A DNA stretch of 41,934 bases from UHGV virus genome UHGV-0119548, one strand, 5' to 3'. This stretch comes from a virus. Positions 23,352 through 24,188 of the stretch are shown here, one piece after another. Each line of letters starts with the position of its first letter. Position 1 is the first letter of the stretch. The position numbers were made by a program, and so were the translations under genes. Under the pieces are notes generated by a model. It was not told where the DNA came from. It saw only the letters and a program-made list of their open reading frames with translations, and searched no databases.

Positions 23352-23495
23352 TCATTGTTGCCCCTTAAATATACGCTTCGCTTCTCTGTAAATTAGCGCA
23401 CCAGTCATTACAATCACGTATACACACAGCATTAACGCAACGATAAGCACACCAGAGCAAAGCAAGAACATAAGCAGATCGATAAATTCCGGCAT
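23352..23495 (-). CDS. micro-ORF I: membrane peptide (47 aa)
   Basis: RBS GAGGTGG 4 nt before ATG; MPEFIDLLMFLLCSGVLIVALMLCVYVIVMTGALIYREAKRIFKGQQ. Confidence 0.45.
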   Translation of the reverse strand: MPEFIDLLMFLLCSGVLIVALMLCVYVIVMTGALIYREAKRIFKGQQ

Positions 23496-23504
23496 ATTGC
23501 CACC

Positions 23505-23576
23505 TCACATAACAGAAAGTGCCCAGGTCATAAGGATGATGAACAAAACCATGCAGATAAAATCCAACTCTTTCAT
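23505..23576 (-). CDS. micro-ORF H: hydrophobic peptide (23 aa)
   Basis: RBS AGGTGG; MKELDFICMVLFIILMTWALSVM; paralog of F and G. Confidence 0.45.
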   Translation of the reverse strand: MKELDFICMVLFIILMTWALSVM

Positions 23577-23585
23577 GTTGTCCAC

Positions 23586-23654
23586 CTACTGAGTCAGTGC
23601 AATCATAGTGAGAACAATCGCGACAACCAGGAAAAAGAAATCAAGCCATTTCAT
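23586..23654 (-). CDS. micro-ORF G: hydrophobic peptide (22 aa)
   Basis: RBS AGGGG; MKWLDFFFLVVAIVLTMIALTQ. Confidence 0.45.
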   Translation of the reverse strand: MKWLDFFFLVVAIVLTMIALTQ

Positions 23655-23670
23655 TTTTAACCCCTGCGAT

Positions 23671-23742
23671 TCAGTTAACGCTTAAAAGCACCGCAACGAT
23701 GACGATCACTATAATCATGCAAAAGAAGTCTGCTTCTCTCAT
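23671..23742 (-). CDS. micro-ORF F: hydrophobic peptide (23 aa)
   Basis: RBS GAGGG; ATGA overlap with E stop; MREADFFCMIIVIVIVAVLLSVN. Confidence 0.45.
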   Translation of the reverse strand: MREADFFCMIIVIVIVAVLLSVN

Positions 23743-23819
23743 CTTTTTAACCCTCGATAAAAATCAACAGCAATAACTGTAATAACAGCCACCAGCAATA
23801 GCATTTCGTATGCGTTCAT
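23739..23819 (-). CDS. micro-ORF E: hydrophobic peptide (26 aa)
   Basis: RBS AGGTGA; MNAYEMLLLVAVITVIAVDFYRGLKR. Confidence 0.4.
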   Translation of the reverse strand: MNAYEMLLLVAVITVIAVDFYRGLKR

Positions 23820-23826
23820 GCTTCAC

Positions 23827-23901
23827 CTATACAACATTCTTCCACCAGAAATAGATAATGACGGCGACCAACGACCACCAGATGAGATCGTAAATATTTA
23901 T
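23827..23901 (-). pseudogene. micro-ORF D: paralog copy lacking a canonical start codon
   Basis: frame encodes INIYDLIWWSLVAVIIYFWWKNVV (compare E: MNAYEM...) but begins ATA, with no in-frame ATG/GTG/TTG. Confidence 0.25.
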
Positions 23902-23912
23902 GGTGAATACCT

Positions 23913-23987
23913 TCAGCTTTCAATGAATATCATGATCGCCAGCCATACAGCGACGCAGGCAGAAAGGATAATTAGCGGGTCAATCAT
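23913..23987 (-). CDS. micro-ORF C: hydrophobic peptide (24 aa)
   Basis: RBS GGGGTGG; MIDPLIILSACVAVWLAIMIFIES. Confidence 0.4.
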   Translation of the reverse strand: MIDPLIILSACVAVWLAIMIFIES

Positions 23988-24000
23988 CTTGCCACCCCAT

Positions 24001-24096
24001 CTAATACTTGCTTTTTACGGTTATCAGTACGGCAATAACAAAACTCACCAGAAATACAGAAATACCAATTAATCCGGCGATGATGTAAGCGTCCAT
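24001..24096 (-). CDS. micro-ORF B: hydrophobic peptide (31 aa)
   Basis: junction CGAGGCTGATTATG identical to A; MDAYIIAGLIGISVFLVSFVIAVLITVKSKY. Confidence 0.45.
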   Translation of the reverse strand: MDAYIIAGLIGISVFLVSFVIAVLITVKSKY

Positions 24097-24098
24097 AA

Positions 24099-24188
24099 TC
24101 AGCCTCGCATAGACATAATCACCATAAACAGGCAAATAATGAATCCGAACGCCACGCCACCCATAAACGTTAATATTGACGCAATCAT
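24099..24188 (-). CDS. micro-ORF A: hydrophobic peptide (29 aa)
   Basis: ATG 2 nt after stop of 24191-24733 with GAGG RBS; MIASILTFMGGVAFGFIICLFMVIMSMRG. Confidence 0.45.
   Translation of the reverse strand: MIASILTFMGGVAFGFIICLFMVIMSMRG

Follow-up and report, generated by a model that had tools for sequence, protein, structure and literature searches.

A cassette array of predicted single-helix membrane micro-genes ahead of the terminase genes of mEp021-like temperate coliphages

What does a temperate coliphage encode in the interval between its lysis genes and its terminase when gene callers leave that interval almost empty? We addressed this question in UHGV virus genome UHGV-0119548 (hereinafter the window, i.e., the whole stretch of 41,934 nucleotides [nt] that was analyzed), in which a first-pass annotation, made from the sequence alone, had noticed a run of nine tiny open reading frames (ORFs) for hydrophobic peptides. 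We found that the slot between a conserved gene for a 180-amino-acid (aa) protein and the packaging genes of this Escherichia coli phage holds ten consecutive micro-ORFs on the minus strand (23269–24188), coding for proteins of 22–47 residues. Comparative sequence analysis indicates that these are genuine protein-coding genes under purifying selection, and we consider it likely that they form a late-operon cassette array of independent, free-standing transmembrane (TM)-helix micro-genes whose products would act in the inner membrane.

All nine previously reported micro-ORFs and their peptides were recovered on the minus strand with the same boundaries; overlooked had been a tenth member, J, which follows them (Table 1). 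Nine of the ten are intact, with an ATG start and a Shine-Dalgarno (SD) site, the exception being D, which starts with ATA. The purine-rich ribosome-binding sites described for the array are present as GAGG, GGTG(G), AGGTGA, AGGGG, GAGGTGG and AAGG, 3–9 nt before the starts, and each micro-gene has either its own SD site or stop/start coupling to the preceding gene. The spacing between genes, earlier given as 0–10 nt, in fact runs from −4 to +16 nt, with 4-nt overlaps (ATGA) at the E/F and I/J junctions and 16 nt as the widest gap.

To qualify as a micro-ORF in our scans, a frame had to have an ATG, an SD-like tetramer 4–16 nt upstream, 18–55 codons and a 15-residue Kyte-Doolittle maximum of at least 2.2. 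Nine ORFs in the array pass this rule, whereas 1000 dinucleotide-preserving shuffles average 0.11 and never exceed 2; a chance origin of the array is excluded. The same rule found no qualifying micro-ORF on the opposite strand of the array, nine scattered ones on both strands of the remainder of the 41.9-kb window, and two (at most one per kb) on both strands of phage lambda, which served as a control. The GC content within the array is about 0.40, lower than in its surroundings, and the coding strand is T-rich, as expected from the xTx codons of hydrophobic residues.

The evidence for selection comes from 67 intervals, each reaching from the 180-aa gene to the gene for the small terminase subunit (terS), which were drawn from the window, six isolated phages, 11 E. 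coli prophages, two metagenome contigs and 47 IMG/VR contigs. The ratio of nonsynonymous to synonymous differences per site (pN/pS; Nei-Gojobori method, pooled over families) is 0.21 in the called frame versus 1.13 and 1.27 in the shifted control frames for a 20-genome set, and 0.28 versus 0.93 and 1.43 for all 67 genomes; single families range from 0.01 (J) to 0.47. Variable sites fall at codon positions 1, 2 and 3 in the numbers 152, 98 and 257 (p=1.6e-17). Synonymous divergence is considerable (pS about 0.3), which together with the low in-frame pN/pS points to constraint on the peptides rather than on the DNA. Orthologs in every family keep the ATG, the SD site and the stop codon. Two plus-strand ORFs of 84 aa (23818–24072) and 68 aa (23190–23396) were considered and rejected as genes, being antisense to the selected frames and lacking an SD site.

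The window is an mEp021-like (mEpimmI) temperate coliphage with the synteny lysis genes–HExxH gene–array–terS–terL. MagusPhagus, mEp044, mEp010 and mEp554 have the same gene order, with 80–96% coverage at 86–89% identity, and match the 2.1-kb array segment at 86–89% identity with mosaic gaps; partial matches to this segment were also found in 35 of 5426 complete E. coli genomes. Across the 67 intervals, whose length varies from 319 to 1155 nt, every genome has 3–13 hydrophobic micro-ORFs on the coding strand versus 0–2 on the opposite strand. Clustering of these yields 21 families in 50 distinct presence/absence patterns, arranged in a fixed order: A4/A2/A/N1/A3–B–N2–D2–C–D–W–X–E–F–G–Y–Z–H–I–J2/J. 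A near-universal core consists of C, E, G and J, the last in some genomes as its allele J2, and B is usual; J or J2 is always the final gene ahead of terS, and the C peptide is unchanged even where the adjacent 180-aa protein drops to 60% identity. The minimal usual set, that of mEp021, has five micro-genes. The peptides had been called a diversifying family, a description that holds for the highly mosaic gene content but not for the individual families, each of which is conserved and four of which (C, E, G and J/J2) are nearly universal. A close relative of the window (L021, IMGVR_UViG_3300045988_059992), with a 100% identical 180-aa protein, lacks H and I, so array content varies even between very close relatives.

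Other insertions touch the same region. In mEp013, an HNH endonuclease (L005, 1388–1873) replaces the A/B end of the array, and in a metagenomic relative another (L019, 2752–3273) lies between endolysin and Rz; these insertions in or near the module mark the region as an insertion hot spot. In the prophage of E. coli FAH, an extra acidic, non-hydrophobic 47-aa ORF (MNDEELKIADEIRK..., L016, 2337–2480) lies between J and terS, and is annotated by the Prokaryotic Genome Annotation Pipeline (PGAP) as WP_021537953.1. The earlier expectation that length-filtered callers would miss the array is borne out, in that PGAP annotates next to nothing in this interval of E. coli prophages and the curated mEp021 record shows no genes in it; records made in the style of PHANOTATE or Pharokka call some of the micro-genes as 'hypothetical protein'.

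The first-pass annotation had further pointed to an identical 14-nt junction shared by A and B. This sequence (CGAGGCTGATTATG) is indeed present twice, 92 nt apart, flanking cassette A. In relatives, the same junction stands ahead of whichever cassette leads the array, be it A, A3 or C, and its position before a variable first cassette is consistent with cassettes being gained and lost when gene junctions recombine. Shuffle tests indicate common ancestry within F/G/H, D/D2/E, A2/A3 and J/J2, and these paralogous sets agree with the proposed expansion by tandem duplication. Of the two paralogies suggested at the outset, F/G/H is upheld by these tests but B/E is not, E grouping instead with D2 and D. 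The view of D as a decayed copy also stands: its start is ATG, with AAGG 8 nt upstream, in 45 relatives, whereas the window and L021 share the ATA, and the comparison suggests that D has probably been inactivated. Such decay is rare, the other cases being an ACG start of Z in four contigs and a stop codon in X in one contig.

One cassette reaches beyond this group of phages. Cassette A and its junctions show 91–96% DNA identity to a segment of rV5-like lytic myoviruses, and tblastn searches recovered the 29-aa A peptide at 86–97% identity in 91 rV5-like (Vequintavirus) genomes, where it is mostly unannotated; the same search with B gave matches in mEp-like phages only. The downstream end of the rV5 homology coincides with the 14-nt junction, and the rV5 copy of A is nearer to the window copy than is that of another prophage. 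In rV5 the homolog takes up exactly the gap that annotation leaves between ORF137 and ORF138 (DQ832317, 96254–96343; L011, 1519–1608), where it is a lone gene within a long stretch of small genes for which sigma-70 promoters are annotated, i.e., an early-type context. By these sequence comparisons, cassette A has been horizontally transferred between mEp-like and rV5-like phages, and its solitary occurrence in the rV5 block implies that at least one member works outside the contexts of array, lysis and packaging. The same 16-kb early-type block of rV5 contains three further lone micro-ORFs with a predicted TM segment, one of which is the annotated ORF 145. The rV5-type segment is also carried by eleven 'Campylobacter phage' records (about 135–141 kb, with two of 35 and 76 kb) at an identity equal to that of E. 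coli Vequintaviruses; these records look like rV5-like coliphage genomes under another host name.

The peptides themselves have 15-residue Kyte-Doolittle maxima of 2.2–3.6. Their summed Hessa-type insertion energy is negative in all ten cases, near that of YohP (27 aa) and more favorable than that of TisB, and their mean hydrophobicity of 0.64–0.94 goes with a helical moment of 0.03–0.20, as against moments of 0.53–0.58 for the controls PSM-alpha3 and delta-toxin (the hydrophobicity scales and control sequences in these energy and moment comparisons were supplied by us). Hydrophobicity, insertion-energy sums and low moment agree in predicting one hydrophobic helix per peptide, as had been proposed. 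The peptides are uniformly hydrophobic and lack the amphipathic helix that typifies phenol-soluble modulin (PSM)-like peptides and leaderless bacteriocins. In most families the tail N-terminal to the helix has a net charge of −1 or −2, the usual start being M-x-x-[YFI]-[DE], and the C-terminal tail one of 0 to +4, a pattern for which the positive-inside rule predicts an N-out/C-in topology. Motifs of the small-xxx-small type occur in A, A2, A3, B, C, X and J. As 22–31 residues leave no room for a soluble domain, any activity of such peptides would be intramembrane. We considered the LSAC of C as a lipobox and rejected this reading, as the n-region is acidic and spans just 7 residues, and LSLC takes its place in natural variants.

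Table 1. The micro-gene array of the window, its junction repeat and the flanking features
Feature	Position	Strand	Product	Peptide	Start and upstream site	Arrays (of 67)	pN/pS	Remarks
terS	22773–23258	−						Small terminase subunit, Sf6 type; Pfam PF20901, E=1.2e-37
J	23269–23355	−	28 aa	MKELFDWLEVLTYCATLIACLYILCKWF	Overlaps I stop by ATGA	67 (J or J2)	0.01–0.07	Core, most constrained family; ends 10 nt before terS
I	23352–23495	−	47 aa	MPEFIDLLMFLLCSGVLIVALMLCVYVIVMTGALIYREAKRIFKGQQ	GAGGTGG upstream	17		Long hydrophobic stretch, basic C-tail (+4)
H	23505–23576	−	23 aa	MKELDFICMVLFIILMTWALSVM	AGGTGG 6 nt upstream	20
G	23586–23654	−	22 aa	MKWLDFFFLVVAIVLTMIALTQ	AGGGG upstream	62	0.14	Core family
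F	23671–23742	−	23 aa	MREADFFCMIIVIVIVAVLLSVN	Start overlaps E stop (ATGA)	25
E	23739–23819	−	26 aa	MNAYEMLLLVAVITVIAVDFYRGLKR	AGGTGA upstream	65	0.27	Core family
D	23827–23901	−	24 codons		ATA (23901–23899) in place of ATG			Rest of frame intact
C	23913–23987	−	24 aa	MIDPLIILSACVAVWLAIMIFIES		64	0.12–0.28	Core family
B	24001–24096	−	31 aa	MDAYIIAGLIGISVFLVSFVIAVLITVKSKY	ATG, GAGG 6 nt upstream	57 (by clustering)	0.27
14-nt junction, downstream copy	24094–24107	−						R-G-stop of A, TT, ATG of B
A	24099–24188	−	29 aa	MIASILTFMGGVAFGFIICLFMVIMSMRG	ATG, GAGG 6 nt upstream	16	0.28	Contains GVAFG (GxxxG)
14-nt junction, upstream copy	24186–24199	−						R-G-stop of 180-aa ORF, TT, ATG of A
180-aa ORF	24191–24733	−	180 aa					HExxH (HECAH), NETYAY motif, Lys-rich C-tail; phrog_1365, function unknown
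Terminator-like hairpin and U-rich run	24801–24853	−						Between Rz and 180-aa ORF
Rz	25012–25500
Endolysin	25470–25958
Class II holin	25959–26159

The array had been placed directly after Rz/Rz1; in fact, Rz ends at 25012, and a 278-nt spacer with a terminator-like hairpin and the 180-aa ORF intervene. The segment 24800–24905, which includes this hairpin, has a fold energy of −35.1 kcal/mol (z=−4.45), and the mEp021 and mEp013 records have annotated terminators at the corresponding position. With Rz, hairpin and 180-aa gene in between, the array lies about 1.3–2.7 kb downstream of the endolysin gene on the same strand. A further site resembling a strong intrinsic terminator (ACCCGGCCCCGCGCCGGGT and then a T run; 26184–26202, minus strand) is found just upstream of the holin gene, and may be a terminator that late antitermination must read through. 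The gene for the 180-aa protein is always directly upstream of the array, and H79, E80 and H83 of its product are invariant. Searches with this protein gave no Pfam or PDB match, and these two sources likewise gave no support to the label 'PolyVal metallopeptidase superfamily' that one source attaches to a relative; no relatives were found in a scan of contigs at one genome per species, and its AlphaFold2 (AF2) model is poor (predicted local distance difference test score [pLDDT] 53). A crude scan for promoter-like sites within the array found none on the coding strand and none on the opposite strand. The array shares its direction with the 180-aa gene before it and with terS, terL and the portal gene after it, and this, together with the tight spacing and the absence of promoter-like sites in that scan, suggests that it is transcribed along with the late packaging genes.

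Further SD-preceded hydrophobic micro-ORFs of 39, 37 and 30 aa lie elsewhere in the window, at 39618–39737, 39746–39859 and 37795–37887 (all minus strand). Each of the seven mEp-like phage records has counterparts of the pair at 39.6–39.9 kb (67–90% DNA identity), annotated there as hypothetical proteins, and in mEp021 the pair adjoins a 'putative toxin-antitoxin system subunit'. Phage lambda (J02459) has an SD-preceded 26-aa hydrophobic ORF, unannotated in the record, at 40567–40647 on the plus strand (MTIYITELITGLLVIAGLFIWGRGKS), which overlaps the stop of the preceding gene at 40570.

Scans of the peptides against Pfam, PHROG, NCBIfam and PADLOC recovered no significant match, and the peptide strings are absent from the searchable literature. 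For peptide I, there are 11 clusters at 90% identity among 5.8 billion proteins and two representatives at 50% identity among 1.84 billion, all of its relatives being 47-aa hypothetical proteins from E. coli or Caudoviricetes. The array goes unmentioned in the paper that defines the mEpimmI group.

How, then, might such an array work? We envisage that the micro-genes would be transcribed together with the late packaging and morphogenesis genes and translated separately, each from its own SD site or by stop/start coupling. The peptides, too short to leave the ribosome before termination, would insert post-translationally into the inner membrane in the N-out/C-in orientation, where the helices could bind the TM segments of membrane proteins, be these from the host or the phage, or could self-associate or join with one another, a possibility for which the GxxxG or small-xxx-small motifs of several peptides may be cited. 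In the evolution of the array, copies would arise in tandem and diverge, cassettes would be gained and lost when the short conserved junctions recombine, a gene would occasionally decay at its start codon or through a nonsense mutation, and single cassettes would be exchanged with unrelated phages, leaving a near-universal core (C, E, G, J/J2 and usually B) interspersed with variable cassettes. As to their role, our best guess is that the peptides modulate inner-membrane proteins of the host, or envelope physiology, in the course of lytic growth. We rank this role first, with lysis timing, exclusion or counter-defense, and a core hetero-oligomeric complex as candidate specific versions of it. 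Several points weigh against the proposal of free-standing inner-membrane helices expressed late. The topology rule is not universal, as A and G lack the acidic N-tail and the C-tails of A4 and N2 are acidic. Conservation shows no general helical periodicity by which a binding surface might be recognized (p<0.05 in 3 of the 14 families tested). Late expression is read from gene order and from missing consensus promoters in a scan that was crude, and translation and membrane location are predictions from sequence.

The first specific version, in which late inner-membrane peptides tune holin triggering, as antiholin- or holin-like factors or through the membrane potential, and thereby set lysis time, is possible but in our judgment rather unlikely. 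The array runs in the same late direction as the lysis genes, about 1.8 kb downstream of the holin gene with endolysin and Rz nearby, and peptide I has a weak, non-significant match to the holin profile PHROG 920 (E=0.027). There is also a precedent in the one-TM-domain holin-like lysis regulators of mycobacteriophages, which are reported to be encoded beside or apart from the lysis cassettes (PMC13056207; bioRxiv 10.64898/2026.08.27.747656). However, the hairpin and the 180-aa gene stand between Rz and the array; the tight linkage of the array is to terS and not to the lysis genes; the phage already has a canonical holin; and the other nine peptides show no similarity to holin profiles and are without the charged domain that holins typically have at the C-terminus. 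The retention of A among early-type genes of rV5-like phages, far from their lysis cassettes, speaks against it as well. The earlier suggestion of lysis-timing modulators, whose sole basis was rough proximity, is weakened by this early-type context and by the hairpin and gene that precede the array.

A second version sees the array as an island for inter-phage competition or counter-defense, with intramembrane binders that block membrane-borne defense effectors or the DNA-entry machinery of rivals; we entertain it only tentatively. Variable small genes in a fixed slot, with 50 patterns in 67 genomes, recall accessory, anti-defense and exclusion hot spots; in mEp013 the same slot has received an HNH endonuclease, A has been exchanged with an unrelated lytic genus, and the families are lineage-restricted orphans. 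Set against this are the absence of a PADLOC match for six proteins of the locus, a promoterless placement in the late operon that is atypical for lysogen exclusion or early anti-defense genes, a conserved core (C, E, G and J) that looks like housekeeping rather than an arms race, and pN/pS values without a sign of positive selection. Superinfection exclusion and membrane depolarization, both raised by the first-pass annotation, are possible roles. More speculatively, and with low confidence, we suggest that the array might be a natural combinatorial library of TM helices, each neutralizing a specific membrane-embedded target (such as abortive-infection TM effectors, entry channels of rival phages, or host quality-control or transport proteins), with cassettes swapped at need; such swapping would account for the movement of A between temperate mEp-like and lytic rV5-like phages.

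It is decidedly improbable that the peptides form a hetero-oligomeric membrane complex for late phage functions, i.e., packaging and assembly or DNA exit and entry, with C, E, G and J as obligatory parts. The presence of the core families in 62–67 of the 67 genomes in fixed order would suit such a complex, as would translational coupling, which favors stoichiometric production, and the constraint on J, always directly before terS, at normal synonymous divergence. However, mEp021 grows with five members, one genome has two, and A works alone in rV5; further, we know of no siphovirus packaging step that needs membrane micro-proteins.

The operon structure and the selection data disfavor the two remaining accounts. 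That the genes encode type I toxin-like or depolarizing toxic peptides, each checked by an antisense RNA, is very unlikely: the size and hydrophobicity of the peptides are like those of TisB, Ibs, Ldr and ShoB, and some type I loci are tandem, but the genes are coupled, with no room for separate toxin/antitoxin units and no terminators between them, and the defining antisense RNA and separate transcription unit, which the earlier type-I-toxin suggestion would entail, were found neither by the promoter scan on the opposite strand nor by an Rfam scan of 22500–26800. We give hardly any credence to the notion that the peptides are irrelevant and the segment acts as regulatory or packaging DNA or RNA, or as leader ORFs that protect the transcript from Rho or set terS expression, as its location immediately upstream of terS and its continuous chain of coupled ORFs might suggest, given that amino-acid-level purifying selection is confined to the called frame while synonymous sites diverge freely, one-helix hydrophobicity is kept across 21 unrelated-looking families, A is conserved in the different genomic context of rV5, and array length varies several-fold.

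In practical terms, RefSeq prophage annotations and the mEp021 record lack a block of 5–13 selected genes per genome, illustrating that a length filter in gene calling can conceal entire functional modules and not just stray genes. Phages of this kind are not rare: mEp021-like phages are reported to equal lambdoid phages in frequency among E. coli isolates from the human gut (PMC11893012). The 21 minimal membrane protein families, with their natural presence/absence variants, the five-gene version in the laboratory phage mEp021 and one cassette (A) conserved across an unrelated lytic genus, constitute a resource and a tractable E. coli system in which to ask what the hydrophobic microproteins of phages and bacteria do. 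If the library interpretation were true, the array would represent a new class of phage host-manipulation island made solely of minimal TM peptides.

Among known systems, small bacterial single-pass membrane proteins such as AcrZ, MgrB, MgtS, KdpF and CydX, a class uncovered with models of the ribosome-binding site together with conservation, act by binding larger membrane proteins. The array peptides resemble these and YohP in being shorter than 50 aa, in having one hydrophobic helix and their own SD site, and in having been missed by annotation and detected by conservation; they share no sequence similarity with them. Whereas those bacterial genes are single, scattered and individually regulated, the array has 5–13 genes head to tail in one phage operon with turnover of cassettes. 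Free-standing TM-helix proteins that act through helix-helix binding are also known from papillomavirus E5 and the artificial traptamers, which offer an analogy of mechanism only, that of a virus-encoded lone TM helix acting inside the membrane; E5 belongs to a eukaryotic virus, is a single gene with a known receptor target and has no homology to the array. The type I toxins TisB, Ibs, Ldr, ShoB and Hok are hydrophobic peptides of 19–50 aa, and the ibs/sib and ldr/rdl loci are tandemly repeated; the array differs in being operonic and coupled, and antisense RNA genes and own promoters were not found in it. Holins, antiholins and holin-like lysis regulators with one TM domain (e.g., LysF1b of mycobacteriophages) are likewise small late phage membrane proteins in the broad neighborhood of lysis genes, but holins are usually 60–150 aa with a charged C-terminal domain, and the array is linked to terS, not to endolysin. 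A parallel in organization is the staphylococcal psm-alpha operon, with tandem genes for peptides of about 21 aa on one transcript, each with its own ribosome-binding site; PSMs, however, are amphipathic and surfactant-like, with moments of about 0.5, unlike the array peptides. With anti-CRISPR and other accessory islands, the likeness is one of architecture only (fixed slot, small genes, many combinations, horizontal exchange), since these encode soluble proteins, are usually early and have a helix-turn-helix regulator, none of which we saw in the array. Post-translational insertion has been described for YohP-type peptides (PMC7549839). The Entero67K survey, a catalog of microprotein families in Enterobacteriaceae, describes unannotated intergenic ORFs of 15–70 codons that are mostly hydrophobic, under purifying selection and often co-directional with their neighbors, with predicted TM domains in 5% of the families, as opposed to all families of the array; the words 'prophage', 'tandem' and 'terminase' gave no hits in text searches of this survey (PMC11188072). 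In its density, cassette turnover and cross-phage mobility, the array is unusual among small membrane proteins.

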